Virus record (IMG/VR): IMGVR_UViG_3300047560_002175
Span: 1 to 64,000 of that record
Source: a virus
Taxonomy: Duplodnaviria > Heunggongvirae > Uroviricota > Caudoviricetes
DNA length: 64,000 bases
Direction: 5' to 3' (one strand)
The notes under the pieces were generated by a model. That model was not told the DNA's origin and did not search any database. It saw only the letters and a program-made list of their open reading frames with translations. Position numbers and translations under genes: made by a program. Shown piece after piece: positions 4,611 through 53,962 of this stretch (positions are counted from its first letter, which is position 1; the number at the start of each line of letters is the position of its first letter).

Positions 4611-5124
4611 CTATTCTGTCATATTGGTGCATACTTAAAACTTTTCCAGTTGAACTTAACTTAATCAATCTTTCAGTAACATCGTGTAAGTCCATATCTG
4701 TTTGAGCATCTTCTCTTGCATACTCTAATAATCGAATTAGTAATGGTATATCCATTTTAACAATATCTGTTGGATTTTCTGTAGATTCAGTCGGTACAGC
4801 ACTGTAACCAGGTATAGCATCTTCCATTACTTTAGCTGCAATCATTTGAGCATAACTTTTGAGTTCTGCTTTTTGAGCAAAAACTTGTTCTTCTTGTTCA
4901 GCAGATGCCTCAGCCATGTATTTTTTAAATAATGATGGCTTTGATGGTTTCTTTTCAATTGGTTCAGCATAGTGCTGCATTGCCATTTGTACAGGCAATG
5001 CAACTTTATGCGGATTTGAACCTTCTGTAATGATAGACATGAATTTCTTCATATCGTTAGTATTTTCTACAGGAACAGACTCTTTAACTGAGTCCATTGC
5101 TTGTAGAATCTTTTTCATATCCAT
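4573..5124 (-). CDS. Hypothetical protein
   Basis: 183-aa ORF packed between neighbours on the same strand. Confidence 0.4.
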   Translation of the reverse strand: MDMKKILQAMDSVKESVPVENTNDMKKFMSIITEGSNPHKVALPVQMAMQHYAEPIEKKPSKPSLFKKYMAEASAEQEEQVFAQKAELKSYAQMIAAKVMEDAIPGYSAVPTESTENPTDIVKMDIPLLIRLLEYAREDAQTDMDLHDVTERLIKLSSTGKVLSMHQYDRIVGAPRQGKDNGF

Positions 5125-6935
5125 TATTTAATAACTCGTTCAGTGATCATTTTTAAACGATCTAATTCAGTTGATTCTTTATATGCACCGTAACCCATTC
5201 CTTGATTTAAGCCTTGAGTATATTTTTGTAATTCTTCTGGATGTTGTGAATAGTACAATCTACGTGCTGCATAATCTTGTTCTTTAGCAGCATTATCTGC
5301 ATCTTTTTGTGCCATTCTAGCATCAAATTGAGCTGAATGTTTATTGGCCATTTGATCAAAATTATCACTTTTGTTATCAAACCATTGTTGGGCACGTTCG
5401 TGATCTCGATCCATTTGTGCCCATTGTCTTTCATCAGCACCTGGTCCAAATAATCCTGGCATTCTTTGTTGCGCACGTTTCCAATCTGCATCTGAAATTG
5501 GTTTTCCACCTTGTGACATTGGCTCTTGTGACATTGGCTCAAATTGTGCGTTTTGTTTTTCTTGAGCGGCATATTCTTCAGGTGAAATATCATAACCCAT
5601 GTCATCTTTGAATTCATTCAATCCGCTATTTCTCATAATTGCATTAATTTCTGCTGACTCAGTTTTAGATTTTTTAATAGCGTTATCTACTGCACCTCTA
5701 TGTTCTTCTGGACCAGTTTCAAGTTTACCATCCTCGTCATAATCTTTGTCAGCTGTTTTTGCAGCTTTCTTTTCTTCTAAATAAGAAACAGATTCTTTAA
5801 TATTTTTCCACATTGCAGCAGCGGCGATTTTTTTACCTTTTTCGCCGCCACCTGCTTTGGCTGCAACTTTATCAAAGTTTTTGCCTGGTTTACCGATGTC
5901 TTTGCCTGCTTTTGCGTCTTTAGCTACTTTTGATCTTTCTTTAGAGGTAAGATGACCGCCAGGTTTTTTTTTACCTTCGTAAAATGACTCATCAGTTTTT
6001 GTTTCTTTTTTAGCGTAAGGATTGCCAGTATCTTGACTGTTTACACTTGATTTAGGTTTTTCTTTTTTTTCACCTGAATCTTTTTTAGGTTCTGATTTAG
6101 AACTAGAATCTTTTTTTGGTTGTGTTTTTTTAGCAGGTTGTTTTGGTGCAGATGATTCTGCAGATTTACTTCCTGGACGTTTAGGCTGTTCTTTTTTGGT
6201 GATAATTTCATCATCCATTGCGTTGCCTTTTAAGTTTTCTTCATCATCTGGAATGCCGTTGTGGTTAGCATCAACTTTTGATTGAACAAAGTTACGTAAG
6301 ATTCTATGTTTGTTTACTAATTTTTTAGTACTAGCTGGAAGTTGTTTCTCTACCATACCGGATCCACCACATTCTCCGCATGTATGCATAACACCTTCTT
6401 TAACTGCTTTTGGTTTTTCAAGTTTATCGGCTTGATCAATTTTAAGGGCTGCAAGTGTTTTTCTTGCTTCCATTAAAGCTTTTTTCATTTGTCTTTTTTC
6501 ACTTTCTGAGTACATATCGCTTTTCTCTATCTTATCGCCGTATTCGCTGAACTTCATTTCGTATTCTAAATAATGATAAACTGAAGAAATATAATCTGCA
6601 GCTTTGGTAATTTTAGCTTGAACCCAAGATTCAAACTGATCATTATCTTCAATTTTCTTAAATAATTTAACACTGTATTTTGCCAACTTAAACAAGTCAG
6701 CTTTAACCATTGCACCTTCATCATCACTTTCGATGTTATGATCTTTATGATCAATTTCTTTATGTGAAATATCAACACTTGGTGCAGGTAAATCGAATTT
6801 AGGCAAATCTAGTTCAAGACCTGCAAATTCTGAAAGTTTTTTTCTATGTTTCATGATAAACTCCGTTATAGTATATTTAGCTTCTTTTAATGGTTCCACC
6901 GGTAAATAAGTCTCCGCCTTCCATTTGTGCGCCAA
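5124..6935 (-). CDS. Large, highly charged Lys/Glu-rich hypothetical protein with a CGECGGSG motif
   Basis: 603-aa ORF with a long K/S/E-rich low-complexity central region. Confidence 0.45.
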   Translation of the reverse strand: MAHKWKAETYLPVEPLKEAKYTITEFIMKHRKKLSEFAGLELDLPKFDLPAPSVDISHKEIDHKDHNIESDDEGAMVKADLFKLAKYSVKLFKKIEDNDQFESWVQAKITKAADYISSVYHYLEYEMKFSEYGDKIEKSDMYSESEKRQMKKALMEARKTLAALKIDQADKLEKPKAVKEGVMHTCGECGGSGMVEKQLPASTKKLVNKHRILRNFVQSKVDANHNGIPDDEENLKGNAMDDEIITKKEQPKRPGSKSAESSAPKQPAKKTQPKKDSSSKSEPKKDSGEKKEKPKSSVNSQDTGNPYAKKETKTDESFYEGKKKPGGHLTSKERSKVAKDAKAGKDIGKPGKNFDKVAAKAGGGEKGKKIAAAAMWKNIKESVSYLEEKKAAKTADKDYDEDGKLETGPEEHRGAVDNAIKKSKTESAEINAIMRNSGLNEFKDDMGYDISPEEYAAQEKQNAQFEPMSQEPMSQGGKPISDADWKRAQQRMPGLFGPGADERQWAQMDRDHERAQQWFDNKSDNFDQMANKHSAQFDARMAQKDADNAAKEQDYAARRLYYSQHPEELQKYTQGLNQGMGYGAYKESTELDRLKMITERVIK

Positions 6936-18298: not shown

Positions 18299-18910
18299 TT
18301 ACATCGGCATAGAAGCCGACCCTCCTGGCATTCCACCGCCCATTGGTGGCATTCCGCCACCTGGAGGAGGCATTCCACCACCTAACCCTGGCATAGGAGG
18401 TGTTGCTGCACCTGGTGCACCAGGTGCACCAGGAACTGGTGTTCCTTGACCTGGTATTGAATTTGGATCTATGTTTTCATTTTTTAATTTAGCCATGTAA
18501 CCATGGTACATATCAAATGCTAATTTTTTTGGCATTTGAATTTCTACAATCCAAATTGGATGTCTATCTAATTTACCTTTTTTAGTGTTAGGTCTGATAT
18601 CTTCTTGTGTTTTAATTGGACGTGGTTCGATGAGATGCGATTTTTGATATTTAACTTTGCATTTTAAATCTACTAATCGTTTTCCACCGTCAGGATTTGG
18701 CATGCTTTCTCTCGGCCACATAAAACCAGCTGTAATATAATGGCGATCAACTTTTGGACCATAGGCCAATTCACCATTTTCCCAGTTTTCATATACATAT
18801 AGATCTAATTCATCGAGAACTCGTTCAAAGTCTTTTAGTATTGCTAAATTTGAATTATTTTCATATAGATCTTGTATGTTTTTAATAATGTCTAATACAT
18901 CATGATGCAT
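18299..18910 (-). CDS. Hypothetical protein with a Gly/Pro/Met-rich C-terminus
   Basis: PGAPGAPG...GGGMPPPGGGMPPMGGGMPGG tail. ATAAATA motif upstream. Confidence 0.45.
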   Translation of the reverse strand: MHHDVLDIIKNIQDLYENNSNLAILKDFERVLDELDLYVYENWENGELAYGPKVDRHYITAGFMWPRESMPNPDGGKRLVDLKCKVKYQKSHLIEPRPIKTQEDIRPNTKKGKLDRHPIWIVEIQMPKKLAFDMYHGYMAKLKNENIDPNSIPGQGTPVPGAPGAPGAATPPMPGLGGGMPPPGGGMPPMGGGMPGGSASMPM

Positions 18911-20030: not shown

Positions 20031-20458
20031 AGTTTTTCAACAGTTATACCACATTTTTCTAAAAACTCAAGTCCAGCAGTACTACGATAAGTTTCTGTAT
20101 AGAACACTTTAATAATGCCGGACTGATATATCCCTTTAGCACACTCTATACACGGAGCATGTGTAATAAACATAAAAGCACCTTTACCTGATTCAGTCGA
20201 ACTAGCTAATTTCATTAGCGCATTCATTTCTGCATGGATGACTTCTGGTTTGGTTTTAAGATATGAACCACCATCTTGGATAATATCCATTTCTACTTCG
20301 CAAACATTATTCCAACCGGTAGGTGTACCGTTGTAGCCAAGACTAATAATACGATCATCTTTAACTACAACCGCACCAACTTTAAGCTTAACTGCGGAAC
20401 TAAGTTCCGCAAATGTATAAGCCGTTTTCATAAAAGCTTGTTTAAACTTAGCTTTCAT
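20027..20458 (-). CDS. cd: dCMP (deoxycytidylate) deaminase
   Basis: HAEMNAL and PCIECAK zinc-binding motifs of the cytidine/dCMP deaminase fold. Confidence 0.8.
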   Translation of the reverse strand: MKAKFKQAFMKTAYTFAELSSAVKLKVGAVVVKDDRIISLGYNGTPTGWNNVCEVEMDIIQDGGSYLKTKPEVIHAEMNALMKLASSTESGKGAFMFITHAPCIECAKGIYQSGIIKVFYTETYRSTAGLEFLEKCGITVEKL

Positions 20459-21309
20459 TACTTAATGCCAATCATCGGTAATGAGCTGTTAGGAACCATA
20501 GTAGTAGGCAATTCACCGTTCCATTTTTCAATAGCATTAAGTTCTGCTACGCCTGGGTTGTTTTTAACAGCTTCACCTTTTAAGTGAATGGCTTTAGCTT
20601 CAGCTTCTGCTACTAATAACCTTGCATTAGCTTCACCTTCTGCCTGTGCAACCGCAATAGCAGCCTGTGCTTTAGCAGTTTCAACTTGGTTTTGTCTTGT
20701 AATTGCCTGTTGCGATGCATTAATCTTTTCATTTATTGCAGTAGTAACAGTGTCTGGTAATCTAATATCGCCGACCCAAGAAAGATGATCTAAAATAATA
20801 CCGTATTGTTCAATCTCACCACGAACACGCTTTTCAGCAGCTTTGATTAAATCACTTTTGCCTTCGCCGTAGACTGTTTCAATTGACTTAGTCGATGATT
20901 CAGTATTGATTGCATCGCGCACTAGGTTTCTTAAGTAAACATCTGTAATTTCAGTAATACCTTTACGATACTTTTGGAATAAAACTGGAATTTTATCCTC
21001 TTGTAGCGTATATGTGATACCAATATCAGCATTTACACTTAAACCTTCTTTAGTTTGGAAGGTAATTGATTCGTCTTCTGCACGTCCTTCGGTATGTGAT
21101 TTAGTCCAAGTGTAGTTCTGCATAAAGGTTGGAAACGTGTATAACTCTTCGTTTACACCAATCCAGTATCGTCCTGGTCCTAATTGTTCAGTATCAACAC
21201 CTTTGTCGCCACCAAGTAAATGAACTTTAACACCAACTGTACCTACTTCAACTTTTGAACAACCTACGAGTGCAGTGGCAATTGCAGCAACTAAAAGTAA
21301 TTTTTTCAT
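20458..21309 (-). CDS. SPFH/Band-7 (prohibitin/HflC-like) lipoprotein
   Basis: Lipoprotein signal MKKLLLVAAIATALVGCS. AEGEANARLLVAEAEAKA coiled region. C-terminal AIEKWNGELP typical of SPFH proteins. Confidence 0.75.
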   Translation of the reverse strand: MKKLLLVAAIATALVGCSKVEVGTVGVKVHLLGGDKGVDTEQLGPGRYWIGVNEELYTFPTFMQNYTWTKSHTEGRAEDESITFQTKEGLSVNADIGITYTLQEDKIPVLFQKYRKGITEITDVYLRNLVRDAINTESSTKSIETVYGEGKSDLIKAAEKRVRGEIEQYGIILDHLSWVGDIRLPDTVTTAINEKINASQQAITRQNQVETAKAQAAIAVAQAEGEANARLLVAEAEAKAIHLKGEAVKNNPGVAELNAIEKWNGELPTTMVPNSSLPMIGIK

Positions 21310-21515
21310 TATTTTTTCTCCTCAAAAAGTTTTTCAATTTTGACATTTGCATCTTTAAGTAATGCGTAAAGTACAATTGGATCAATGACTAGTGCAATAA
21401 ACCAACCTAGTGTAAAAATATACCAGTCGTTTGATGACATACAGTATGGTAACACAAATATAAATTGGAGTGTAAAAAACACTAACACTCCAAGTAGTTT
21501 AAAATATGACAGCAT
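21309..21515 (-). CDS. Small two-TM membrane protein immediately upstream of the SPFH gene (possible NfeD-like partner)
   Basis: 68-aa hydrophobic ORF. Stop/start overlap with the SPFH gene. Confidence 0.4.
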   Translation of the reverse strand: MLSYFKLLGVLVFFTLQFIFVLPYCMSSNDWYIFTLGWFIALVIDPIVLYALLKDANVKIEKLFEEKK

Positions 21516-21574
21516 AAATGCTCCTGTTTATAAAAATAAAAGTATATTATACACTATATTATAATAAATGCAAA

Positions 21575-29084: not shown

Positions 29085-32000
29085 ATGGCAAAAAAAATAA
29101 TTGAAATTGGTGTTCAAGGGAATGACGGTACTGGCGACAGTATACGTGAAGCGTTTAGTAAAGTTAATGATAACTTTAGTGAAATTTATGCAGTATTTAA
29201 GAGTGAGGGTAAAATTAATTTTAGTGATCTATCTGATGGATGTACTTACATCAGTGATCAGCTTATCACCGCAAGTCACGATGGAACTACGTTAATTGCA
29301 AGAGATTTAGTACCAGGGAATGGTATATTCATATCTGCAACATCGTCGGCTATTACAATTGAAGCACAAGCAGCTTCATTATCAAATGATTTAAAACCAG
29401 AGATATCAGCACCATTTAATGCTAATAAATTTGCAATTGGTCGTTTGTCGGATCCAAGCGAAGACCTTGTAGATCTTTTTAACTTAGTATACGATATACC
29501 AACTACATTAGATGAGTTACCAGTAACTGTGGGATATGCAAATAGACGATATGCACAGTTAACTGAATCAGGTGTTATTGGTGTTTTAGAAAATGGGGTT
29601 ATAGTTCCAAGTCCTATACAAACAAGAGCAGAACCTACAACTCCTGATATTACAAACCCATTGTACGATCCAACATTAACTGGTAATTACTTGTCAACTG
29701 AAGTATTACCACGTAAGGACGTAGTATACCGTGGTGGTGATAAGATGACCGGTGCGTTAATCTTAAATGATCACCCAGGAGCAATGGCTGGAACAGTTGG
29801 TGCAATGTTTGATTCTGATCTACAGGCAGCAACTGCATTTTATGTAGATAACAAAACATTCACAAGTAATGTTAATTTATATGTTTCTGCGGCATCAGGT
29901 GACGATTTGCAACTTAGAACACCTGCAGGGAAAGAAGGTAGATATTGGAATTATGCGTTTAAATCTATCGGTGCTGCATTGTTACATGCTGAGTCATTGA
30001 TTAATTTAGCAAGTCAAGAACCTGGTCCTTACAAACAACGTATTTCTTATACACTTGGAGCAGATCAAACATTTTCAACAGTTCAACGTGTAAGATTAAC
30101 CGGTGGTGAATCTACAACACCTGGCTATGTTGCTGCATTTAACTTATTACAAGCTAATCGGTCATTTATTCAATCAGAAACAATTTCATATATTAATAAA
30201 AAGTATGTGAATAAATTTTCTTATAATAAAACACTATTTTCAAACAGAATAGAGTTTTTAATTAAAGCAGTATGTGATGATTTATTGTTAGGTGCTACTG
30301 ATCCAGATACATCAGTACCTGGAACAAATTATAGATCAATTCGGTCTGCTGTAAAATATTTACATGATGATCCATATTTAGAGCAATCGATTCAATGGTT
30401 ATCTGCTATTGAGTTTATTAGAAATCAAATTATTGAGTTTACATACGATGGACCTGCATTGCAAGATTATACTACTCAGTTAGTTACTGCATTATGCTAT
30501 GATTTGATTTTTTCTTCAAACTATCAAAGTATTCAAGCTGGTATTGCATTTAAAAATGCCGGAACTAAAGTAAGTGCAGAACAATTAGGTTCAATGCTTA
30601 CTATTAAACCTATTAACATTTTATCTGTAACAGTTAACGGTGGTGTTGTAACACTTAATTTCTTAACTCAATCATCGGCATTCTTATTAAACAGTGAAAT
30701 ATTAATTGATGCAGTGTTTACAAACGTTGACGATGAAACAAATGAAATCATAATTAAACCGAGTGAAACTGTTAACAATGTTACTACTATTACTTCTGTT
30801 ACTATTGATTCTGCATCAACTGTTTCATCTGTTAGTTTTAGAAAAGGTGGATATCCATTTATTAACGATGGCACATACACTGTAACAGGGTCGTTTGATC
30901 GTAAGAACTTAATTAATCTGTTGTTATTAACACCAGGTATTACAACTTATCCAAGTTCTGCAGTTGATATTACTGCTAATGCTACAATAGTGCGTGATAT
31001 AGTGTTAACTGGGACTATCCCAGAACCGGTTATGCCTACACCAAACAATCCACCAGCAGGGTATAATGTTCTTGGTCATGTTCATGCAAAATCGTTGTTA
31101 TTAGATAACATTTCATTTATTCAAGCTGAAGTAGTTGCTTATCTTAGTTCAGAATTCCCAGATGTATCATATAATCGAGAATTATGTTTGCGAGATGTGA
31201 AATATATCATTTGGAGTTTAGCATATGATTTAACATATGGCGGTAATAGTCAAAGTGTATATGCTGGTAAAAAATATTGGAATAATTCAACCAACTTTAT
31301 CATTGCATCTGAAAAAACCGCATGTGTAAGCGTAATTAACTATATCAATACATTGGCTCAAGCAGTCATTATAAACAGTGCGACTACTACGACCTATCAA
31401 CAATCAGTTAGACAGTACAGAAATGATACATTAACTAATGGTAATGTAGCATCAGCATCAATTGCAAGCAATGTTGCTACGATTGCAGCAATTGTGACCA
31501 GTTTAAGTAATGTTCCTGCTATTATAAATCCAAGTGTTACAACTGGTTTAGCAGAAATGCAAACTATTTTTGATAGAATTACTGCAGATATTGGAAATTA
31601 CACAGATGACACAAAATCTACATCGACAATATGGTATTTAGATAGTTATTTCCCAGTAATTAAGACATTAACTGATAAAGATAAGATTAATAACTTGTTT
31701 GATCAGATAATATCTATTGTATCCGGTGGTGTTTATCCGTCAGTAGTACCAGTTTATCCAATTGTAACTATTCCAACACCAGTTAACGTAAATGTTACTG
31801 ATGCATGGATTGTTCAAGCTACCGGATTGCTTGATCAAACAGCAATTAATACCATTGCACAATCTACAAATTCTTATATTGCGTCAGTTTATACAACAAT
31901 TACCTATAATTCAACTACTTTACAAAATGATATTAAAGATTTGTTGTTTGCAGCAATTTACGATTTAAAATATGGTGGTACATTGGCTAGTTTTGATGTT

Positions 32001-35000
32001 GCAACTACATTTACATTGTTAGGATCTAATGTTAATACTCAAAAAACAATAGTTCAAGCTGCAATTGATCATGCATGGTCTCTTACAAATACTTTATTAG
32101 TTGGAAATATAACTGGAGATACTTCAAATCATACAGTTAACAAATTGCGTGAAAAATTCACATTTGCTTCTTCATATTTTAGCAATAATCCGCCAATACA
32201 AGGCGACGATATTACAGTATCATTATTCTCAACTACTACATATGACAATGCTACTAAATTAAGAACCTTAATTTTAAATAGTTTATCTACTATTTCAAAC
32301 GATACCTTAACTTACATTGATTCAGTGTTTAAAGGTGGGTTTACTTATGATGAATCTTTATGTTATAGAGATTTAGGTTTGATTATTGATGCAATGTCAA
32401 TTGATTTAATCACTGGTGGTACATATCAATCTATAAATGCAGGTAAAAGTTTTTATAAAAACTCAAGTGCAAGAGCAGTTTCAATTGGTACACAATATAC
32501 ACAGTCATTTGATGGTATAATGTTTGCTCAATCAGTAGCATTGCAAGTATTAAATAAACAACTTAAGAATAGATACCAATTATTACCGCAAATTACACAA
32601 TTTGCAACAACAAATCCATCTAATTTAACATATATTAGCACAGGCGAATTACCAACTGATAGTATCGGTGTTACAGGCGATCGTTCATTGCCAGTTTCTC
32701 AAAATGCAATTGACACATTTGTTGCAAACATGTTAAGATTAACTGATATTATACAGTACGGTATAAGCGTTGCAGCAACACCGTCGTTTGGTTCAGGTAT
32801 TTGGAATTTATTAATTGACAATGGCGGGAGAGGCTATGTAGATCAAGGTTCTCCGTCAAATAACGACTTATTCCCAGCTAAAGTAATTGTAGGTGTTGGT
32901 ACTTCATCTATTGCTGCATCCAATGCGTATGGAAGTATTGTTACATATACATACGGCAGTGATATTTCCGGTGCACCTTTAGTGTTAGGCGATGTTGATA
33001 CACTTCAAGTACGGTTAACAAAGCCTGGATTCTTTAAATCTGCTTACACTTTAGTAGATCTTAACTGGTCTTTTGTTGGAACTACTGTTACAGTTACTAA
33101 AGCTAACCATACAATTACACAAGGTACTCGTATAATTGTAAACTTTGCCCAATTCTTTGGGTCTGGATCTAATGCCCCAATTGGAACTTGGATTGTATCG
33201 GCAGTAACAACTAACACATTTTCATTTGTAACAAGTTTAGCACCAATTGGAACTAGTACATTAATGACTGTAACGGTTCAAGTAGGTGAACAAATTGAAT
33301 TTGGTGAAACTGTTCGTGATTTGCAACTAACAATGTTCATTGAAAGTGGCATTTATTACGAAGATTATCCATTGAGAGTGTCATCAAACATATCTATTAA
33401 GGGTGACGAGTTCCGTAGAACTATAATTAGACCAAAAGATCGTATTAGTCAAAGCCCATGGCGTAAGATTTTCTTCTATCGTGATGCAATTGTTGATGCT
33501 TTAGAGGTAGGTTTAATTGATTATACCGGAACTAACTATGCTCCGAGCGGAATTACAGCGTCTTTAGACGGTGTAACTAATAAAATTGTGGTAACATTGA
33601 GCGGTAATTTCCAAGCACCATTGAGTTGGGTTGGTAAAGTGTTTGCTGATACTAATACTACAAACGGAAATGCAAAACGCGGTAAAGCTGTAGTTGACTC
33701 TGTTAGTGGTAATACTATAAATTGTACAGTAATTTACCCATTTAGCGTAAGTGGATTATATGCTGCCGGTAGTTGGAAGCTATTTGGTACTATAAATTAC
33801 GGTCGTCACTACTTAACTAACCCATTAGATGTAACAAGTACGGCTAAAAACAACAAAGATATCGACGTTTTATTATGTAATGAAGGTACACGTATTGTTG
33901 GTGTAACATTCCAAGGTCATGGCGGGTTTGCTATGGTACTTGATCCAGAAGGAAACATCAAAACTAAGTCACCGTATATTCAAGAATGCGCAAGTTTCAC
34001 ACAAAGTAACAATTATAAGAGATTTGCAGGTGGACAATACATTGACGGATTTGCAGGAAGACTATACGGTAACATCATAGGTGTTTCTAATGACGGTATT
34101 ACTGTAACTGTACAAGGTGAAACTAATAGTGGTTTAGATATTAGACCTCCACAACCACCATGTTCGTTCTATGTACGTGGAAAACGTTATCAAATTGATG
34201 ATATTGTAAGTTTTGATGCAACTACTGCAACTGTAGTATTAACATTGGATAAAACTACACCGTATTTACATACAACATCTGGTGTTTTAACATACGACGA
34301 TGTTAAAGCAAAACGTGATATCGGTTATGTTTTGGATGCAATTGCAAGCGATGCTGCATTAGGTACAACATATCGTTCAGTACATGCTGGTCGTTCTTTC
34401 TTAAAAATATATTCTAGTCGTTTAGTGGGAGATTTACAAGATCTTACTATTGCAGGTATTAATAAAGCATTAGAATTGTCAAATACAACACTTAGCGGTA
34501 GTACATATTCAAGTATTAGAACTCAATATGCCACTAATATTGCTATTATTACTTCTATGATTTCAAATGGAGTTAATGCAACACCAACTATTGTATGGTC
34601 TACTAGTTCAACAGCTGATGATAACTTAGCTCGTAATATTATTCAAAACAATAAAGCATTTATTAAGTCAGAAATTAGTGCATATATCGCACAATACTTT
34701 ACTTTAGGTGATTACCCAAGATACAATGTATTAACAAGTGAACGAGATGTTGGTTATGTACTTGACGCTATGACATATGACATGTTCTATGGTGGTGATA
34801 GTCAAACAAAAGATAGTGCAGAAGCATTCTTTTACAATAATACATCGTATATACCTGATGAAAATGTAATTTGTTCAGCTGCGTATACCAGATTAAAAGC
34901 TGTATTAGCTGCTGTAGTTGCGGGATCACCAGTTGTTGTAAGTTCAGGTAACAGTGTTTCACAAATACTAACAAATCCGCCAGCATCATCAGCCGGTTAT

Positions 35001-38000
35001 GTTACTAAATTAAACACACTGAGCGACATTGTTATTGATTATATTGCAGACGGTAGTTATAGTTCACCAAGAACAAGTGCTCGTACATATCCATTGTTAC
35101 CAGTAGGTACAACTGGAACTACAGCTTATAACTTATTCTTTGATACCGGAACAAATCCAGCTACTAAAACAACTGCTGAAACTACTATTGAAACTTCTGT
35201 ATCAACTTTCTTAAAAAATGGTGCAAACTTAAGAATTAATATTGAAGCTGGCGGTAACCGTTCAATGTTAGGTAACGATTTTGCTATGTTTAATGATTTA
35301 GCATATGGTATTTTAGCTACTAATGGTGCATTTACTGAACAAGTATGTACATTCACATATTATGCGCATACCGGGCTTTGGGCAAACAATGGTAGTAACT
35401 TACGTGGTGTAGGATGTTCAAATACATTTGGTAACTACGGTATGAGAGCATCCGGTTATGACGTTACTGAATTACCAGATAGTACAAATCTTGCTAATCA
35501 TATGATTCAAACTGCTCGAGTATATAAGCAAGGCATAGTTGCAAACGAAATGATTCCAACCGCAACTGTTCCGGCTATTGCAGTGTGGATCATTGGGTAT
35601 GATTATATTCCAACTAATGGTTCAATTATGGAAATTAATCATTCTGTTAATAGTGGAACTATCAATAGTTACACTGTAACATCGGCAGAATATACTACTA
35701 TACAATTTGCAAATCAAACTGTTCTTAAATTAAATTTAAACACAACTGACACAGGTTCTGGATCAGGTTTATCAAAAGAATTGTACGATGGACAAATGGT
35801 TTCTATTAGATCACTTAAAAATGTTAAGTTTAATAATGTTGATAATGTTAAACCAACAAGACCGTCAACTGCGTTACAATATGTTGATAATTTAAATGAT
35901 GTATATCGTATCATTGCTTACAATTTAACAGAATCAACTGGTGATATGTTAGGTGATAACATTGCAATATTACAAAGTGATAACTCATTTGCATATTACA
36001 ATTTTACAACTGATCCTAAATCAATAATAATAGGTGATCCTGATTCAAGTATCTATACTACTGTAGCATTAAACGGAGGCGCAACTACTAGTACATCATT
36101 AACTGTTACAAGTGCAACAGGTATTTTACAAGGTCACATAATTAGTGGTGTTGGCTTTACTGGACAGATAATTACTAACATTAACGGTAATGTTCTTACA
36201 TTAAGTTCAGCACCAAATGCCACACCATATGGCACTGTGTATTTTTCATTCAAAACACAAGGTTCTAAAGTAGGTGATACTAAAATTGCAGTTGATCAAG
36301 TTTCTCAATTAAGAATAATAGATCAAATTAACAAAGGCACTTATATTACAGCATGGAATGGTAGATTACATCGTGTATTGAGATATGTAACTCCAACATT
36401 TGCAGTGTCTAAAACTTATGCATCTTACAACAGTGGTACTTCTACAATGGTAGTAACTGGTTCAGCAGGATCGATTACTGCTGGTATGTTAGTTATTAAA
36501 CGAAATGCAACAACCGAAGCACTTGAATTTACCGGTACTGTAGTGTCGGCAACTGTAGTAGGTCTTACAACAGAAGTTGTGATATCAACTCCAAATCAAG
36601 TAGTAACTCCGTTAACTCAAGGCCCTGTAACATTTGGTGTAACTGCAAACGGTTATATTGAACTATCACCAAATGCATTTATAAACAATGCTGCTAATGG
36701 TGTTTCTGTTAATGCAATGACTTATCTAAGTTCAGACTTCCAAGTTGATAGTATTACTGCTAAAGTAGTAACTTTTGATATACCATTTAGTAAAGATAAT
36801 TTATTACCAAAAGTTGATAGTTATCTAACATTTGCAGGCAACTCAAATGCAAGTTATAATGGCGAATATCAAATAACCAGGGTAATAAATCAAACATTAG
36901 TAACATTGTCAACTATTACTGATTTTGTAGTAGGTATGGTTGTAACTTCACAAGTAACTACACAATTTATTACAAACTCAGGCGGTGTTTCAACATTTAC
37001 ATCAACTGCAAATCATAACATGGTATTAAATGATCCAGTAACAGTAAATGTTTCAAGTAATATGAATGGTCTTGTTCAAAGCACTACGTATTATGTTAAA
37101 ACAATTCCAACTTCAACATCGTTTACATTAAGTGCGACATCAGGCGGTACTGCATTAGGTAATTTTGGTATTGTTGTATCAGCTGGGGTTGTGATTATTT
37201 CGATAGCAACTAATTTAGGTGTATCAACGTTTACAACAAACACATCACATGGTTTAGTTTCTGGTAATACATTTGCACCAAATATCAGTACAAACAGTTT
37301 TGTTGCTGGAACTACCTATTATGTTAAAGATGTAACATCAAATACGTTTACATTAAGTGCAACATCAGGTGGTTTAGCGTTAGGAAACTTTGGAACTACT
37401 AATGTAATTTCATCGTCAGTATCATTTAAAACTCCACAGACTGCTATTATACCCGGCGGTAGTGCAATTATTCAATCTGTTTCATCTGATCCATTAGTTA
37501 AAACAATTGTAATCAGTCCTGCAGCATGGGTTCCTGCAAACTCGCCAATTAGAGCATCGTTAGCTGCAAGTGTAATGAGTATTTCAATTACATCAGGTGG
37601 TTCAGGATATACATCTGCACCATCTTTAACAATTGAAGGTGGTTCTCCAACTCAACGAGCAACTGCAACTTGTACAATTGTTAACGGTGAGATTAATGAA
37701 GTTCGTGTAATTATTAAAGGTAGTGGATATGTTTCTATACCGTCAGTTACAGTTACACCTGCGGTTGGTAATATTCCAACTTCAACTGCTGTATTATCTG
37801 TAAACTTATCAACTGCTGTATTGCGTGATGCTACTTCAACAACTGGTGTGTCTACAATACAGATGTCTGCATTGTATCCAACAGATCCAGGTACATTTGG
37901 AACTGTTACATCGATTACAGTATCTGCTGAAACTACAACTACTACTACATATAATTCAGTTAGTGGTTATTCAATGGCTTATACAGTATCATCAGGATCT

Positions 38001-41000
38001 ACAAAACCTGCAAATGATACTTGGTGCAAGGTTGAAGGTAATAGTAATGCGTTGTATAATGGATTTTTCCAAGTTATTTCAACTGCAAGCACTACAATTA
38101 CATTATTTTCTCCATTAAATCCAGGAATTTATGGAACTGGTACTACAACTATTACTTCTACTCCTACAAACGGAACAAGTACAAGTTTAGGTATTAGTAA
38201 ACCATTTAGTACTAAAGATGGATACACATTTAACATTGGTTATGCCGCAAATACATTTGCTCAAGTAACAACACGCATTAGTACATGTCGTGCTACTGGA
38301 CATGACTTCTGTGATATTGGGACAGGTGGATATAGTACAACAAATATTCCATATTCAATCTATGGTGAGCCTGCATTAAGTCGTCAAGTTTCACATGAAA
38401 CATTAGATGAAAGTGTAGGACGTTGTTTCTATGTATCAACTAACCAAGATGGTATATTTAGAGTAGGTAAATTCTTCTCAGTAGACCAAGGTACAGGTGT
38501 TGTAACACTTAGTTCAAAGACTGCATTGTCAAATATTGAAGCATTTGGATTTAGTGGCGGCGGTGCTGTTGTAAATGAATTTTCAACAGACTCAACATTA
38601 ACTGATAACTCCTCTAATAAAGTACCAGTTGAAAGTGCAGTACGTGGATATATTGATAAACGGTTAGGCATTGATCATGGTGGTTCTCCATTACCGTTCT
38701 TGTCAATTATTGGACCAGGATTTGTTCCATTAAATGGTTCAGCAAAAATGACAGGAGATTTGGTATTAGGTGGAAATGGTATTACAGGTGTTAGATCTCC
38801 AATTTCATCGTCTGATGTAGTAACTAAAGGTTATTTAGAGCAATCATTATTAGCACACAATTCATTAAATGAACTCGATGATGTAACATTAACTACTCCA
38901 AGTAACGGACAATCAATATTTTATGATTCAGTATCAGCTAAATGGAGAAATGCTGTATTCTCAGGAGATGTTTCAGTTTTAGTTCGCCCATCGACTACAC
39001 TTGACAATGTTATTGTTAGTAGAGGAACAGCATCTGGTATTGATAGTGAGTTTACATGTGATGCAAATGTTGGATTGTTTGTTGGACAACAAGTTACATT
39101 CTCTGGGACATATTCTGGTTCTGGGTTAATAAATGGTTATACTAATCCATCTACATATTTTATTATTGCAACTAATGGAACTACAACTTTCCAACTTTCA
39201 ACTGTAAAAGGTGGTGTTGCTGTTACTGCTACTGCAGGTACATTAGGTTTAACTGTAACGGTTCCGTTGATGTCAATTGCAATAGGTAGTGGAAGAATTG
39301 TTAATAGTATGATTAGTTCTGCTGCTAAAATTGATCAAAGTAAATTATCTTTGAATTTAGCAGGTACATCAACTACTACAGGCGGAACATTAGGTGTAGC
39401 AAGTTTCAGTAGTTATCAATTTAGTGTTGATGCTAACGGTTGGGTAACATTAGCTAATTCATCATCAGAAACAACCGGAACAACATTAACTAAATTGCAG
39501 CATGTTCCAGCTAAAACTGTATTGAGTAACTTAACCGATGGTTCTACAAATGTTGTTGCAAATTCTGCATCTGAGGTAGTTAGAGTTGGTGAAGGTATAC
39601 AACTTGGGTCGTTTACATCAGTTGGTGTTATGACAGTTACTTCAGTTTTAAATTCAAAACCAACTGGATTTGCTGTCGTTGGTATTACAACAACAGGTGA
39701 AGGGTCAAAAATTGTTAAAACTGGTACATCAGGTGGTATTGATGTTGCTGAATTATTAATTGATGGTTATTCTGTTCTTGATGTTGATGCAACACCTGTA
39801 GGTGGAGCTGCTTCAGCAATTGTACAGTTTAAGACACCAGGTAACTACACATTCTTAACTGCAACAGGTAACAACACAGTTAATAACCCAAGTGTTATTA
39901 GTGTTGCCGGAACATTAGATGTTACTGGTACTAATAGTTCAATAAAATGTTCATCTTTATCAACCGGTAGCACAGGTACAGAAGGTACATTAACTGGAGC
40001 TTGGAAATTAGCATCAGGTAGTTCGTTAGACTTTTCAGCAGGTTTTGTAACATCTTCGTCTGCAGGGTTAACATCGAGTGATTTAAATACAATAACAAGA
40101 CCAGCATTGATATTAGATTTTGCAAATAGTAAAACACTTGATCCTCGTATTTCGTTTACTCGTAATTCAATTGGAACATATACTAATGCACAAGGTTTAT
40201 TAGTAACTGCAAGCGTTCATCAAGCAAGATTTGATTTTAATCCAACAACTGGTGTATCAAAAGGTTTGTTAATTGAAGAACAAAGAACTAATGTGTTATG
40301 TGGATCTGCATCATTTGCAATATCAGGCGGAACTAACCAATGGGTTGATAGCAGTATTTCAAGAGGGGTAGGATCAACTTCACCTGCAGGAACAGCTACT
40401 ATTACATTTACTGCATCGGCAGGAAATGCAACAATTATAAGTAACGCAGTTGCATCGGGTACTTCATACAGAACTTTTTCAATATGGTTAAAAAGAGAAG
40501 CAGGTACAGGTGATATTCAATATACATTAAATAACGGTGCTACTTGGACTACACAGGCGATTACAAGTACATTAACACGTTATAGTTGGTCTGCTTCAGT
40601 TACTAATGCAAGTGTTGGTATTAGAATTGTAACATCAGGTAATTCAATTACAATGTGGGGAGCTCAGTTAGAAGATGGAGCATTTGCAACATCTTACATT
40701 CCGACTACAACTGCTGCAGTTATAAGAAGAGCAGATGTTGCAATCGTAAATGGAACTAATTTTTCAAGATGGTATAGACAAGCCGAAGGAACATTTGTAT
40801 TAACACATGCTGCATTAGGCATTGATGCTGTTGCAAATTCATATAATGGTGTTAAAGTTCAATCTACTGATTTAACTGCGTCTATGGAAATACGATGCGG
40901 GTCAACTGGTACAGGTTTATTGTATGATGTAAAAGGTTTAACTAATACTGGTACTACTCAGTTTGATTTTATTGGATATTCAACATTAACAGTAAATACT

Positions 41001-41210
41001 CCAGTTATGCAAGCATTTGGTTATAAGGCAAATGATTGTGCATATAGTGTAAATGGTGATGTTGCAGAAGAAGATACTGTAGCAACTATTCCAACTACAA
41101 TTGCTGAAATGGTAATCGGAGGCGCAGGCGCACAATATATCGAAAGAATTGCGTATTATCCACGTAGGTTAACTAACTTGGAAATTCGTTCACTCACATC
41201 AACTCTATAA
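29085..41210 (+). CDS. Giant (4041 aa) tail-fibre-like structural protein with repeated internal modules and a C-terminal LamG/ConA-like lectin-type domain
   Basis: N-terminal GNDGTGDSIREAFSKVNDNFSEIY (phage fibre N-terminal motif). At least 7 copies of a C.RD.gyv.DA...Dl.yGG..QS..AG..F module. Three copies of a YYVK...FTLSATSGG.ALGNFG module. Two GSGY..P..T repeats. C-terminal WGAQLEDGAFATSYIPT. Confidence 0.7.
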   Translation: MAKKIIEIGVQGNDGTGDSIREAFSKVNDNFSEIYAVFKSEGKINFSDLSDGCTYISDQLITASHDGTTLIARDLVPGNGIFISATSSAITIEAQAASLSNDLKPEISAPFNANKFAIGRLSDPSEDLVDLFNLVYDIPTTLDELPVTVGYANRRYAQLTESGVIGVLENGVIVPSPIQTRAEPTTPDITNPLYDPTLTGNYLSTEVLPRKDVVYRGGDKMTGALILNDHPGAMAGTVGAMFDSDLQAATAFYVDNKTFTSNVNLYVSAASGDDLQLRTPAGKEGRYWNYAFKSIGAALLHAESLINLASQEPGPYKQRISYTLGADQTFSTVQRVRLTGGESTTPGYVAAFNLLQANRSFIQSETISYINKKYVNKFSYNKTLFSNRIEFLIKAVCDDLLLGATDPDTSVPGTNYRSIRSAVKYLHDDPYLEQSIQWLSAIEFIRNQIIEFTYDGPALQDYTTQLVTALCYDLIFSSNYQSIQAGIAFKNAGTKVSAEQLGSMLTIKPINILSVTVNGGVVTLNFLTQSSAFLLNSEILIDAVFTNVDDETNEIIIKPSETVNNVTTITSVTIDSASTVSSVSFRKGGYPFINDGTYTVTGSFDRKNLINLLLLTPGITTYPSSAVDITANATIVRDIVLTGTIPEPVMPTPNNPPAGYNVLGHVHAKSLLLDNISFIQAEVVAYLSSEFPDVSYNRELCLRDVKYIIWSLAYDLTYGGNSQSVYAGKKYWNNSTNFIIASEKTACVSVINYINTLAQAVIINSATTTTYQQSVRQYRNDTLTNGNVASASIASNVATIAAIVTSLSNVPAIINPSVTTGLAEMQTIFDRITADIGNYTDDTKSTSTIWYLDSYFPVIKTLTDKDKINNLFDQIISIVSGGVYPSVVPVYPIVTIPTPVNVNVTDAWIVQATGLLDQTAINTIAQSTNSYIASVYTTITYNSTTLQNDIKDLLFAAIYDLKYGGTLASFDVATTFTLLGSNVNTQKTIVQAAIDHAWSLTNTLLVGNITGDTSNHTVNKLREKFTFASSYFSNNPPIQGDDITVSLFSTTTYDNATKLRTLILNSLSTISNDTLTYIDSVFKGGFTYDESLCYRDLGLIIDAMSIDLITGGTYQSINAGKSFYKNSSARAVSIGTQYTQSFDGIMFAQSVALQVLNKQLKNRYQLLPQITQFATTNPSNLTYISTGELPTDSIGVTGDRSLPVSQNAIDTFVANMLRLTDIIQYGISVAATPSFGSGIWNLLIDNGGRGYVDQGSPSNNDLFPAKVIVGVGTSSIAASNAYGSIVTYTYGSDISGAPLVLGDVDTLQVRLTKPGFFKSAYTLVDLNWSFVGTTVTVTKANHTITQGTRIIVNFAQFFGSGSNAPIGTWIVSAVTTNTFSFVTSLAPIGTSTLMTVTVQVGEQIEFGETVRDLQLTMFIESGIYYEDYPLRVSSNISIKGDEFRRTIIRPKDRISQSPWRKIFFYRDAIVDALEVGLIDYTGTNYAPSGITASLDGVTNKIVVTLSGNFQAPLSWVGKVFADTNTTNGNAKRGKAVVDSVSGNTINCTVIYPFSVSGLYAAGSWKLFGTINYGRHYLTNPLDVTSTAKNNKDIDVLLCNEGTRIVGVTFQGHGGFAMVLDPEGNIKTKSPYIQECASFTQSNNYKRFAGGQYIDGFAGRLYGNIIGVSNDGITVTVQGETNSGLDIRPPQPPCSFYVRGKRYQIDDIVSFDATTATVVLTLDKTTPYLHTTSGVLTYDDVKAKRDIGYVLDAIASDAALGTTYRSVHAGRSFLKIYSSRLVGDLQDLTIAGINKALELSNTTLSGSTYSSIRTQYATNIAIITSMISNGVNATPTIVWSTSSTADDNLARNIIQNNKAFIKSEISAYIAQYFTLGDYPRYNVLTSERDVGYVLDAMTYDMFYGGDSQTKDSAEAFFYNNTSYIPDENVICSAAYTRLKAVLAAVVAGSPVVVSSGNSVSQILTNPPASSAGYVTKLNTLSDIVIDYIADGSYSSPRTSARTYPLLPVGTTGTTAYNLFFDTGTNPATKTTAETTIETSVSTFLKNGANLRINIEAGGNRSMLGNDFAMFNDLAYGILATNGAFTEQVCTFTYYAHTGLWANNGSNLRGVGCSNTFGNYGMRASGYDVTELPDSTNLANHMIQTARVYKQGIVANEMIPTATVPAIAVWIIGYDYIPTNGSIMEINHSVNSGTINSYTVTSAEYTTIQFANQTVLKLNLNTTDTGSGSGLSKELYDGQMVSIRSLKNVKFNNVDNVKPTRPSTALQYVDNLNDVYRIIAYNLTESTGDMLGDNIAILQSDNSFAYYNFTTDPKSIIIGDPDSSIYTTVALNGGATTSTSLTVTSATGILQGHIISGVGFTGQIITNINGNVLTLSSAPNATPYGTVYFSFKTQGSKVGDTKIAVDQVSQLRIIDQINKGTYITAWNGRLHRVLRYVTPTFAVSKTYASYNSGTSTMVVTGSAGSITAGMLVIKRNATTEALEFTGTVVSATVVGLTTEVVISTPNQVVTPLTQGPVTFGVTANGYIELSPNAFINNAANGVSVNAMTYLSSDFQVDSITAKVVTFDIPFSKDNLLPKVDSYLTFAGNSNASYNGEYQITRVINQTLVTLSTITDFVVGMVVTSQVTTQFITNSGGVSTFTSTANHNMVLNDPVTVNVSSNMNGLVQSTTYYVKTIPTSTSFTLSATSGGTALGNFGIVVSAGVVIISIATNLGVSTFTTNTSHGLVSGNTFAPNISTNSFVAGTTYYVKDVTSNTFTLSATSGGLALGNFGTTNVISSSVSFKTPQTAIIPGGSAIIQSVSSDPLVKTIVISPAAWVPANSPIRASLAASVMSISITSGGSGYTSAPSLTIEGGSPTQRATATCTIVNGEINEVRVIIKGSGYVSIPSVTVTPAVGNIPTSTAVLSVNLSTAVLRDATSTTGVSTIQMSALYPTDPGTFGTVTSITVSAETTTTTTYNSVSGYSMAYTVSSGSTKPANDTWCKVEGNSNALYNGFFQVISTASTTITLFSPLNPGIYGTGTTTITSTPTNGTSTSLGISKPFSTKDGYTFNIGYAANTFAQVTTRISTCRATGHDFCDIGTGGYSTTNIPYSIYGEPALSRQVSHETLDESVGRCFYVSTNQDGIFRVGKFFSVDQGTGVVTLSSKTALSNIEAFGFSGGGAVVNEFSTDSTLTDNSSNKVPVESAVRGYIDKRLGIDHGGSPLPFLSIIGPGFVPLNGSAKMTGDLVLGGNGITGVRSPISSSDVVTKGYLEQSLLAHNSLNELDDVTLTTPSNGQSIFYDSVSAKWRNAVFSGDVSVLVRPSTTLDNVIVSRGTASGIDSEFTCDANVGLFVGQQVTFSGTYSGSGLINGYTNPSTYFIIATNGTTTFQLSTVKGGVAVTATAGTLGLTVTVPLMSIAIGSGRIVNSMISSAAKIDQSKLSLNLAGTSTTTGGTLGVASFSSYQFSVDANGWVTLANSSSETTGTTLTKLQHVPAKTVLSNLTDGSTNVVANSASEVVRVGEGIQLGSFTSVGVMTVTSVLNSKPTGFAVVGITTTGEGSKIVKTGTSGGIDVAELLIDGYSVLDVDATPVGGAASAIVQFKTPGNYTFLTATGNNTVNNPSVISVAGTLDVTGTNSSIKCSSLSTGSTGTEGTLTGAWKLASGSSLDFSAGFVTSSSAGLTSSDLNTITRPALILDFANSKTLDPRISFTRNSIGTYTNAQGLLVTASVHQARFDFNPTTGVSKGLLIEEQRTNVLCGSASFAISGGTNQWVDSSISRGVGSTSPAGTATITFTASAGNATIISNAVASGTSYRTFSIWLKREAGTGDIQYTLNNGATWTTQAITSTLTRYSWSASVTNASVGIRIVTSGNSITMWGAQLEDGAFATSYIPTTTAAVIRRADVAIVNGTNFSRWYRQAEGTFVLTHAALGIDAVANSYNGVKVQSTDLTASMEIRCGSTGTGLLYDVKGLTNTGTTQFDFIGYSTLTVNTPVMQAFGYKANDCAYSVNGDVAEEDTVATIPTTIAEMVIGGAGAQYIERIAYYPRRLTNLEIRSLTSTL

Positions 41211-52852: not shown

Positions 52853-52955
52853 GAGTTAATCATCTAATAAAAACATTAGTATTGCCAGTGTTGAAATGAT
52901 TGCGCACATTACTGCACCAAATTCGTCTGCTACATTAGTCATAAGTATTCCCCCA

Positions 52956-52987
52956 TAAAAAAAGCTCTTGGTGTCAACCAAGAGCTT
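52956..52987 (-). terminator. Rho-independent terminator after the BI-1 gene
   Basis: AAGCTCTTGG-TGTCAA-CCAAGAGCTT hairpin followed by a U7 run on the minus strand. Confidence 0.65.
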
Positions 52988-53007
52988 TGATACCATGCTA
53001 ATAATAT

Positions 53008-53712: not shown

Positions 53713-53962
53713 TTGCCATAATAATTTCTTTATTAGGTCCGCAGGAATAAAATTCTACTTCGTAAAGATCTCTCGCGTGACCTAAGTATGTACACCCAAG
53801 AGGTTTTGAAATTGCTCGTCTTTGATCAGTGTATTTTACAGTATTAAATGTTAATCCTCCAACTACTGCTAACCCAACCATTACAACTGTTACTAATGCG
53901 GATTGAAATATCAGTCCGCCTAATACTCCTAAGAAAATTATTAGTATCATTGTTAAAATCAT
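53678..53962 (-). CDS. Small two-TM membrane protein
   Basis: 94-aa ORF overlapping both neighbours. Confidence 0.35.
   Translation of the reverse strand: MILTMILIIFLGVLGGLIFQSALVTVVMVGLAVVGGLTFNTVKYTDQRRAISKPLGCTYLGHARDLYEVEFYSCGPNKEIIMASAGQQPKYKGE

Follow-up and report, generated by a model that had tools for sequence, protein, structure and literature searches.

The window analysed here is a 64,000-nucleotide stretch of viral DNA (Caudoviricetes; positions 1 to 64,000 of the IMG/VR record IMGVR_UViG_3300047560_002175). On its minus strand, a small membrane protein of the PHROG 1130 family and an SPFH/Band-7 lipoprotein of the PHROG 200 family are encoded side by side. The two families constitute a widespread uncharacterised phage cassette that is ordinary for a phage and not special to the one studied here. 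Our data make it likely that this cassette specifies a periplasm-facing, lipid-anchored SPFH protein together with an obligatory partner that has two transmembrane (TM) helices. We give an even chance to the broader reading, in which the phage supplies a self-contained, periplasm-facing SPFH membrane scaffold that conditions the membrane early to mid infection. A preliminary description of this DNA had proposed an SPFH lipoprotein and a 68-residue TM neighbour at 20458–21515, and the Band_7 match, the PHROG 200 and PHROG 1130 profiles and the open reading frames (ORFs) bear this out.

The SPFH lipoprotein and its two-helix partner

The SPFH protein begins with MKKLLLVAAIATALVGC, followed by SKVEVG. 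Cys17 is the predicted lipidated N-terminus, and the SPFH domain begins only two residues after it. Membership in the SPFH/Band-7 superfamily is clear from the Pfam Band_7 profile (PF01145; 94 bits against a cut-off of 23.6, E = 1.4e-26), and the PHROG 200 'lipoprotein' profile matches with E = 2e-81. A lipobox is present in 111 of the 120 closest homologues; the cysteine is invariant in a set of 40 sequences and at least 90% conserved in a diverse set. At the other end of the protein, W263, G265 and P268 of the C-terminal motif are invariant and P278 is nearly so.

The AlphaFold monomer (predicted local distance difference test, pLDDT, 76) shows SPFH1 and SPFH2 followed by a 65-residue helix spanning residues 186–250, with a core pLDDT of 87–92. 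From residue 250 onward, the conserved C-terminus included, pLDDT is below 55. The model thus contains the SPFH alpha/beta domain and the long coiled-coil helix of the cage-forming family members. In solved SPFH cages this helix is the wall-forming element. The conserved C-terminal motif may form an oligomer cap, by analogy with the HflK/C and prohibitin cages. Foldseek returns a probability of 1.0 over about 250–300 columns for prohibitin (8rrh, E = 8e-13) and HflK/C (7vhq, 7wi3, 9cz2), and likewise for erlin, stomatin, QmcA and flotillin, with no discrimination among SPFH classes. The structural comparison with HflK/C and QmcA that the preliminary description had suggested is therefore positive for each of them, and equally so for prohibitin, erlin and stomatin.

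At the sequence level, both the protein by itself and the profile of its family match prohibitin-2, HflC and QmcA in the PDB about equally weakly (E of 1e-3 to 1e-4), and it is the stretch of helix 186–250 that aligns with the helices of these three proteins. The family profile matches none of the HflK chains in the PDB, so HflK is not alignable by sequence. The NCBIfam HflC model (TIGR01932) scores 22.4 bits against a cut-off of 134.4, short of the orthologue level, and the hflK equivalog gives zero match. Judged by sequence, the family is a distinct SPFH subfamily, and the protein is not an orthologue of HflK or HflC. The preliminary description had named grouping with phage Band-7 proteins of established, unrelated function as grounds for giving up its view; it falls within a Band-7 family that is typical of phages, yet one without an established function.

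The partner has hydrophobic helices at about residues 5–22 and 32–52, with both termini predicted to lie in the cytoplasm (N-in/C-in). The PHROG 1130 'membrane protein' profile matches it with E = 4.7e-5 and also fits 36 of 42 partner homologues; PHROG files it under 'moron, auxiliary metabolic gene and host takeover'. No Pfam family matches the partner or its 42 homologues above a weak level. The positive-inside rule gives N-in/C-in in 41 of 41 sequences, Lys and Arg residues numbering 4.6 at the termini and 0.49 within the loop. The loop between the helices carries the consensus G-x3-P-x-L-[IV]-S-[SA]-x-[DS]-x3-V-x2-G-F, of which the window protein has P23, S27 and G37. Among 59 non-redundant partners the proline is kept in 57, the serine in 58 and the glycine in 58; in a second alignment S27 and G37 are invariant and P23 is at least 90% conserved. 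Two other identities for the partner were considered and rejected. It is not an NfeD protein, as the Pfam family is unmatched and 68 residues with two TM helices are too short for an OB-fold. Nor do the two genes form a two-component spanin of the Rz/Rz1 type: the partner lacks a periplasmic domain, the lipoprotein is a 283-residue SPFH protein, and the genes on either side encode a clamp loader and a dCMP deaminase, which is not the setting of a lysis cassette.

The two genes are best explained as a translationally coupled operon. Their stop and start codons overlap in TAATG, and an overlap of the same type joins the SPFH stop to the start of the dCMP deaminase gene. Upstream, the 59-nucleotide spacer after the clamp-loader gene contains a sigma-70-like match (TTTGCA-17-TATAAT), and a Shine-Dalgarno AGGAG precedes the partner ATG; both are consensus matches only. 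Relatives of the phage preserve the order GroES-like protein, clamp loader, partner, SPFH, dCMP deaminase. Between such relatives the SPFH proteins are 85–87% identical, the clamp loader 79%, the dCMP deaminase 75%, the GroES-like protein 71–73% and the partner 62–65%. The 68-residue ORF is a real gene, because homologues with 54–65% identity occupy the same position in related contigs.

The same pairing recurs across phages and bacterial genomes. A tblastn search with the SPFH protein matched 451 of 50,697 phage records, with 418 matches covering at least 80% of the query, and the family comprises at least 624 clusters at 50% identity (E ≤ 1e-30). The phages belong to many families, virulent as well as temperate, and their host genera include Pseudomonas, Erwinia, Klebsiella, Escherichia, Burkholderia, Caulobacter and Salmonella. 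At the first ten phage loci examined, a two-helix ORF of 65–102 residues with a shared inter-helix loop motif lies directly or one to two genes upstream in at least nine. A hidden Markov model (HMM) built from eight partner sequences was then run on 80 IMG/VR loci. It found a same-strand partner ORF at 79, the 80th having no upstream sequence; the partner was directly upstream at 73 of the 80, represented by 58 distinct sequences, and the HMM had almost no matches elsewhere in the loci. In bacterial genomes, 49 of 50 loci with an SPFH protein at least 39% identical have the partner directly upstream, in a scan that was pattern-limited and whose taxa (Dyella, Chitinophaga) are a biased sample. 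The window copy matches both PHROG profiles and has a same-strand partner with P23...S27...G37 directly upstream.

Further support for a partnership comes from fused genes. Three bacterial genome or metagenome-assembled genome contigs (L131, L161 and L166) carry partner and SPFH as one gene, and a partner-like domain occurs in 20 of the 150 best family representatives, at the N-terminus in 19. These 19 run from the partner through a third hydrophobic segment or internal signal peptide to a lipobox and the SPFH domain. Such natural fusions show functional coupling of the two proteins, and cleavage by signal peptidase II would release both parts in a 1:1 ratio. Through conserved adjacency and fusion, the role of the 68-residue protein as a partner stands on firmer ground than the preliminary description had claimed.

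The location of the cassette differs between hosts. In Escherichia coli it is present in 460 of 5,426 complete genomes (about 8%); chromosomes account for 310 places and plasmids, often about 97 kb in size, for 201. The E. coli RefSeq records H81–H88 (for example NZ_CP033848.1, 64163–65207) annotate only an 'SPFH domain-containing protein'; a 78-residue partner ORF within the same RefSeq match appears to have been missed in the records listed. In more than 20 genomes of Dyella and related Rhodanobacteraceae (L123–L170) the pair is chromosomal and syntenic, at about 4700–5850 of each locus. There it is divergent from genes for a BlaI-like repressor, a BlaR1-like M56 peptidase and a MacB-like permease, and is followed downstream by a hemerythrin-domain gene and nrdAB. 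This context hints at regulation by envelope stress, and the conserved chromosomal site implies that the cassette also serves cells outside infection. Among phages, other virulent ones likewise hold it among replication genes (DNA polymerase, helicase or exonuclease), while in the temperate-looking Pseudomonas phage Hali it follows a cI/LexA-type repressor gene (HTH_3 and Peptidase_S24) on the same strand, at a distance of about 800 bp. In the N4-like Erwinia phage phiEaP8 (L200, 1483–2001), the gene right after the SPFH lipoprotein is labelled a ClpX-type ATPase subunit, a label that is unverified.

Several lines of evidence bear on which membrane the proteins occupy. The partner is helical and must therefore sit in the inner membrane. 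The order of the fusions fits only a topology in which the partner C-terminus is cytoplasmic and the SPFH domain periplasmic. In E. coli and its relatives, lipoproteins stay in the inner membrane when the residue that follows the lipid-modified Cys (position +2) is Asp. Among 11 homologues from Enterobacterales phages, the +2 residue is D in five, Y followed by D or E in three, E in two and N in one; the outer-membrane default of S or A occurs in none of the 11. These residues support an inner-membrane, periplasm-facing location of the enterobacterial homologues, on the same side as HflK/C. Signal peptide and lipobox, fusion order and +2 residues together point to a SPFH domain on the periplasmic face, and for the window copy we infer the inner-membrane site from its homologues.

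Table 1 Coordinates of the cassette, the BI-1 gene and pmoC in the window.
Feature	Position	Strand	Description
Partner gene	21309–21515	minus	Predicted 68-residue inner-membrane protein, two TM helices; PHROG 1130
SPFH/Band-7 (prohibitin-like) lipoprotein gene	20458–21309	minus	283 residues; PHROG 200; Pfam Band_7
Predicted signal peptide (residues 1–16) and lipobox L-V-G-C	21259–21309	minus	N-terminus of the SPFH protein
SPFH (Band_7) domain, residues 19–216	20662–21255	minus	Pfam profile positions 2–176 of 176; SPFH1/SPFH2 beta/alpha elements in model
Long coiled-coil-type helix, residues 186–250	20560–20754	minus	AlphaFold model
Conserved C-terminal motif of the SPFH protein	20461–20535	minus	Alignment; E-K-W-[ND]-G-x-L-P ... 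P-[FM]-[IV]-x-[IV]-K
Partner loop motif P23-Y-C-M-S27-S-N-D30	21426–21449	minus	Family alignment; predicted to face the periplasm
Clamp-loader/cassette spacer, 59 nucleotides	21516–21574	minus	Sigma-70-like promoter match and AGGAG
BI-1/TMBIM 7-TM protein	53008–53676	minus	222 residues from ATG; ORF extends to 53712 via an upstream GTG
Insertion block: UvdE, 94-residue TM ORF, BI-1 (84-residue TM ORF overlapping, 54126–54380)	53008–54987	minus	Between pmoC and DNA ligase
PmoC/AmoC, particulate methane monooxygenase subunit C	55405–56175	minus	PF04896, E = 2e-121, full-length

The BI-1 gene and the genome that carries it

The window phage is a jumbo phage: the SPFH and BI-1 proteins each have an identical counterpart on a metagenome contig of 372,173 bp. 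A search of the phage collection for near-identical DNA gave no match, and no cultured phage with similar DNA was found; the clamp loader shares 54% identity with its counterpart in the Pseudomonas jumbo phage PA5oct. Phage-type homologues of the window PmoC are 93–97% identical and lie on contigs of 227–358 kb, while the matches among named bacteria are gammaproteobacterial methanotrophs (63–70%). The phage-type PmoC identifies the window as part of a pmoC-phage of methanotrophs, a group described by Chen et al. in 2020 (PMC7674155). Neither that paper nor a 2026 preprint on amoC-phages mentions FtsH, SPFH or BI-1. Public calls of phage-type PmoC are 211–221 residues long, as opposed to the 256-residue, TTG-initiated ORF of the window, and the true start is therefore probably internal to this ORF.

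About 1.7 kb from pmoC, and 32 kb from the cassette, lies a gene of the BI-1 family. Its product matches Pfam Bax1-I (PF01027) over the full length (153.8 bits against a cut-off of 34.1, E = 7e-45), and a public gene call of the identical protein starts at Met13, giving 222 residues. It aligns with Bacillus subtilis YetJ over all helices, with A-Y-D and L-Y-L-D-F-I-N-L-F conserved; we take the Asp residues of these motifs to be the pH-sensor pair of YetJ. Like its relatives in the BI-1/TMBIM family, it probably acts as a cation-leak channel that is sensitive to pH. The preliminary description had called the product of 53008–53712 YccA-like. The family assignment holds, but YccA orthology does not, the YccA equivalog (NCBIfam NF007765) scoring 39.3 bits against a cut-off of 353.

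BI-1 genes are rare in phages. The nearest relatives of the window copy are 70% and 58% identical and the rest at most 46%. Only five of the 50,697 phage records have a match, all of them unverified faecal scaffolds, and a pattern-limited IMG/VR scan gave 27 BI-1 loci, some on contigs of 240–560 kb and some in giant-virus bins. None of the papers found in our literature search reports a BI-1 gene in a phage. Two syntenic relatives, on contigs of 358 kb (L201) and 266 kb (L203), have PmoC 93–95% and ligase 87% identical to those of the window, and between pmoC and ligase they carry a homing endonuclease in place of BI-1 and UvdE. A 222-residue ORF at the BI-1 position of L203 was examined and is not a BI-1 homologue. 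The absence of BI-1 and UvdE from these relatives indicates a lineage-specific insertion in a variable spot.

SPFH and BI-1 genes occur together in none of the 50,697 phage records and in none of the retrieved loci, those from IMG/VR being flanks only. It is thus literally true, as the preliminary description had held, that carrying both is unusual, but the unusualness is due to BI-1 alone. The close pmoC-phage contigs (310–358 kb) are not among the contigs with close SPFH relatives. The joint programme that had been proposed for the two genes is not supported, as they lie far apart, BI-1 sits in an insertion missing from syntenic relatives and nothing points to co-inheritance. BI-1 is best explained as an independent, recently acquired accessory gene that is not demonstrably linked to the cassette.

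Other features of this genome and its relatives were recorded alongside. Small hydrophobic ORFs surround BI-1 on the minus strand at 53678–53962 (94 residues), 52856–52996 (46 residues) and 54126–54380 (84 residues); the 46-residue ORF is kept upstream of the ligase in relatives (59–67% identity), and the other two belong to the insertion. The window copy of pmoC is uninterrupted, whereas the gene appears split in L201 (7001–8673), L203 (7001–9029) and L204 (13–2041) into a main ORF of 211 residues and a C-terminal AmoC fragment of 38–45 residues lying 230–500 nucleotides downstream. The split gene adjoins a NUMOD3-type homing endonuclease on the opposite strand, which looks like an intron or insertion. 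Close relatives also encode a ClpP-family protease upstream of pmoC (L201, 5376–5963; L203, 6125–6694) and, immediately behind the ligase, a superinfection-immunity protein resembling T4 Imm (PF14373; L201, 10556–10747; L203, 11586–11786). On the plus strand of the window, a 4,041-residue ORF without a Pfam match (29085–41210), a 683-residue protein with a Peptidase_S74 (endosialidase chaperone) C-terminus (41221–43272) and a 1,788-residue fn3-containing protein (43276–48642) are probably giant fibre or structural proteins. A 203-residue ORF on the minus strand (18299–18910) ends in a Gly/Pro/Met-rich low-complexity tail (…PGAPGAPGAATPPMPGLGGGMPPPGGGMPPMGGGMPGG…).

Possible roles of the cassette

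The scaffold reading can be put as a sequence of steps. The first gene would produce a hairpin in the inner membrane, its two ends cytoplasmic and its short, conserved loop periplasmic. The second would produce a pre-lipoprotein that, after export and cleavage at the lipobox, becomes an SPFH protein anchored by its lipidated N-terminus and facing the periplasm. The lipoprotein may then oligomerise into a dome that covers part of the inner membrane from the periplasmic side. The enclosed patch would contain the partner or be organised by it, and the whole would work in the manner of an HflK/C- or prohibitin-type scaffold. The cassette is presumably transcribed with the replication and nucleotide-metabolism genes around it (clamp loader, dCMP deaminase), and on that account would act early to mid infection. 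During phage replication, the cassette would most likely serve to condition the inner membrane of the host, or to stabilise it, together with the associated protein quality control; we make this suggestion tentatively and with clearly less confidence than the structural assignment. FtsH could be one client by analogy, and nothing found here points to it.

Several observations weigh against this reading. Oligomerisation, membrane site and client all rest on inference. A cage is beyond the reach of a monomer model, in which, moreover, confidence is low for the last 30 residues. One family member, P0379 (344 residues), has the partner-like domain at the C-terminus of the SPFH protein, at residues 284–335, an inverse order at odds with the proposed topology that could be a read-through or assembly artefact. 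The window protein itself reads C-S-K, and the Ser at +2 would mean the outer membrane under the E. coli rule, although the rules of its host may differ. A Pasteurella multocida prophage protein described as 'HflK/C-like' is found in outer-membrane vesicles (PMC9872710); it is no more than a possible member of PHROG 200. Our literature search found no demonstrated function of a phage SPFH protein and no experiment on a member of the cassette. Finally, 'conditioning the membrane' is a broad notion, and the data do not cleanly separate it from superinfection exclusion. Exclusion, holin-type and pure accessory-gene roles are possible and less well supported than the scaffold.

Superinfection exclusion fares best among the alternatives, although we regard it as unlikely. 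Here a periplasmic SPFH layer and its partner would shield the inner membrane and block the entry of DNA from later phages. The early membrane proteins Imm and Sp of T4 and the lipoprotein Llp of T5 are precedents for such a barrier. The early or middle position of the cassette in virulent phages, beside DNA polymerase, helicase or exonuclease genes, would suit this role, as would its frequency in E. coli prophages and phage-like plasmids, and the repressor-then-cassette layout of Hali resembles lambda cI-rexAB. The host-takeover category of the partner agrees with it, and one report on a Burkholderia phage calls its SPFH gene a moron (PMC10269572). However, SPFH shows higher conservation than the core replication genes beside it, which is not the pattern of an arms race, and the syntenic Dyella pair lies on chromosomes outside any visible prophage. 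Relatives of the phage also carry a separate T4 Imm-like gene, and a defence match is absent from PADLOC. The sole hit to the PADLOC models, AbiEi at E = 0.003, was judged meaningless, and an assignment to a defence system was dropped.

The preliminary description had favoured another view, in which cassette and BI-1 form a two-armed programme against FtsH: the cage would mimic or displace HflK/C, and BI-1 would act like YccA as a competing substrate and inhibitor. The BI-1-family protein YccA of E. coli is both a substrate and a modulator of FtsH. SPFH classes that face away from the cytoplasm (HflK/C, prohibitins and erlins) all regulate membrane-protein degradation, and the phage protein has the same orientation. 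Its weak sequence matches include HflC, and the two genes share one genome, a combination unseen in 50,697 phage records. A connection of phage SPFH genes with HflKC and FtsH has been the subject of published speculation (PMC8540360, PMC10269572). Yet neither protein scores as an orthologue (HflC, 22 against 134 bits; HflK, none; YccA, 39 against 353), and the link to FtsH comes down to an analogy at the level of families. The family profile matches HflC, QmcA and prohibitin-2 equally weakly (E of about 1e-4) and not HflK, the subunit reported to contact FtsH, via Arg191 (PMC12048511). There is moreover no N-terminal TM helix and no K/C heteropair; instead, the cassette brings a non-SPFH partner of its own. 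The Dyella pair suggests a function independent of infection, and the two genes are not co-inherited: the BI-1 insertion is missing from syntenic relatives, and the 310–358 kb contigs are not among the SPFH carriers. We therefore consider a concerted attack on FtsH improbable.

Slightly less probable still is a moron that benefits the host and has no role in the lytic cycle, with the lipoprotein sorted to the outer membrane or to vesicles, altering the cell surface and merely carried along in the jumbo phage. The precedent is PM0222, the 'HflK/C-like' prophage protein of P. multocida mentioned above, which has a mass of 25–35 kDa and is produced in the lysogen. Like lipoproteins, it activates TLR1/2; it also influences capsule, serum sensitivity and biofilm and is regarded as a virulence factor (PMC9872710). 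The Ser at +2 in the window protein fits this idea; PM0222 is no more than a possible member of the same family, and this counts against the precedent. The cassette is also found in many strictly virulent phages, and its fixed position in a replication module under strong purifying selection argues for a use in lytic growth.

A variant specific to methanotrophs would have BI-1 and the periplasm-facing SPFH cage jointly adjust the FtsH-type turnover of proteins in the membrane, keeping particulate methane monooxygenase and its membranes working during infection. The parallel is cyanophage psbA and the FtsH-dependent repair cycle of D1; we think this very unlikely. In a more modest version, PHROG 200 and PHROG 1130 would form a self-contained, lipid-anchored SPFH cage system with a general role at the phage-host membrane, and its non-NfeD partner would in some genomes be part of a single precursor that is cut at the lipobox. 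The least probable reading is one of lysis timing, in which the SPFH cage restrains or times the oligomerisation of a class II holin- or antiholin-like partner: size and topology (two TM helices, N-in/C-in, a charged C-terminus) and weak Phage_holin_2 matches in two of the 42 partners (best E = 0.004) are compatible with a holin, but no annotated endolysin or spanin gene adjoins the cassette at any locus examined, the loop motif, strict SPFH pairing and lipoprotein-precursor fusions are not holin features, and the cassette occurs in non-prophage regions of Dyella chromosomes.

Comparison with known SPFH systems

Cages of HflK/C, prohibitin, stomatin, flotillin, erlin and QmcA have recently been solved by cryo-electron microscopy, and their role is debated. 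Phages and prophages carry their own version of an SPFH protein, lipid-anchored, probably facing the periplasm and with an obligatory two-TM partner, in hundreds of phage genomes. A phage SPFH gene was noticed as early as 2006 (PMC1524935), and the function of such genes has been called poorly understood (PMC7760394). The presence of the cassette in E. coli phages and plasmids makes cage formation, client and effect on infection directly testable. For the window itself, the cassette is ordinary and the FtsH story unproven; the rare item is BI-1 beside pmoC in a phage of methane oxidisers.

The phage protein shares with HflK/HflC of the FtsH complex (PDB 7vhp/7vhq, 7wi3, 9cz2) the succession of SPFH1, SPFH2, long helix and C-terminal region and, probably, the placement on the periplasmic side. 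The weak similarity to HflC spans the end of SPFH2 and the first helix. In contrast to the N-terminal TM anchor of HflK/C, it has a predicted lipid-modified Cys (LVGC); HflK and HflC form a tandem heteropair without a dedicated two-TM partner, whereas the cassette has one SPFH gene and such a partner.

The best match in both sequence (phmmer, E = 1.4e-3) and fold (Foldseek, E = 8e-13) is to the prohibitins PHB1/PHB2 (8rrh, 9o9z), whose domain likewise faces away from the matrix or cytoplasm side. GenBank phage homologues are named 'prohibitin family protein', and the ProddE record cites CDD cd03401. However, prohibitins are eukaryotic TM-anchored heteromers that partner the m-AAA protease, and the identity is only 17–20%.

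As a two-gene operon of an SPFH protein and a small polytopic membrane protein, the cassette resembles the SPFH-NfeD pair QmcA-YbbJ of E. coli (8z5g). The fold of QmcA matches that of the phage protein (Foldseek, E = 1e-7), as does the family profile (E = 2e-4). QmcA differs in facing the cytoplasm, and the 68-residue phage partner has neither the NfeD OB-fold nor a Pfam family.

For the product of 53008–53676, the likeness to YccA and YetJ lies in seven TM helices, a full-length Bax1-I domain and the two Asp motifs of YetJ; it is not a YccA orthologue. The closest relatives of the SPFH protein are the SPFH/Band-7 lipoproteins of other phages (phiP27 L05, PVP-SE1 gp117, phiEa21-4 gp81, CcrMagneto gp178 and RB43 ORF139c), which belong to the same family with 31–52% identity. 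PHROG 200 genes of phages have the same upstream partner and show no difference in kind; the window copy is distinguished by residing in a pmoC-phage of about 372 kb.

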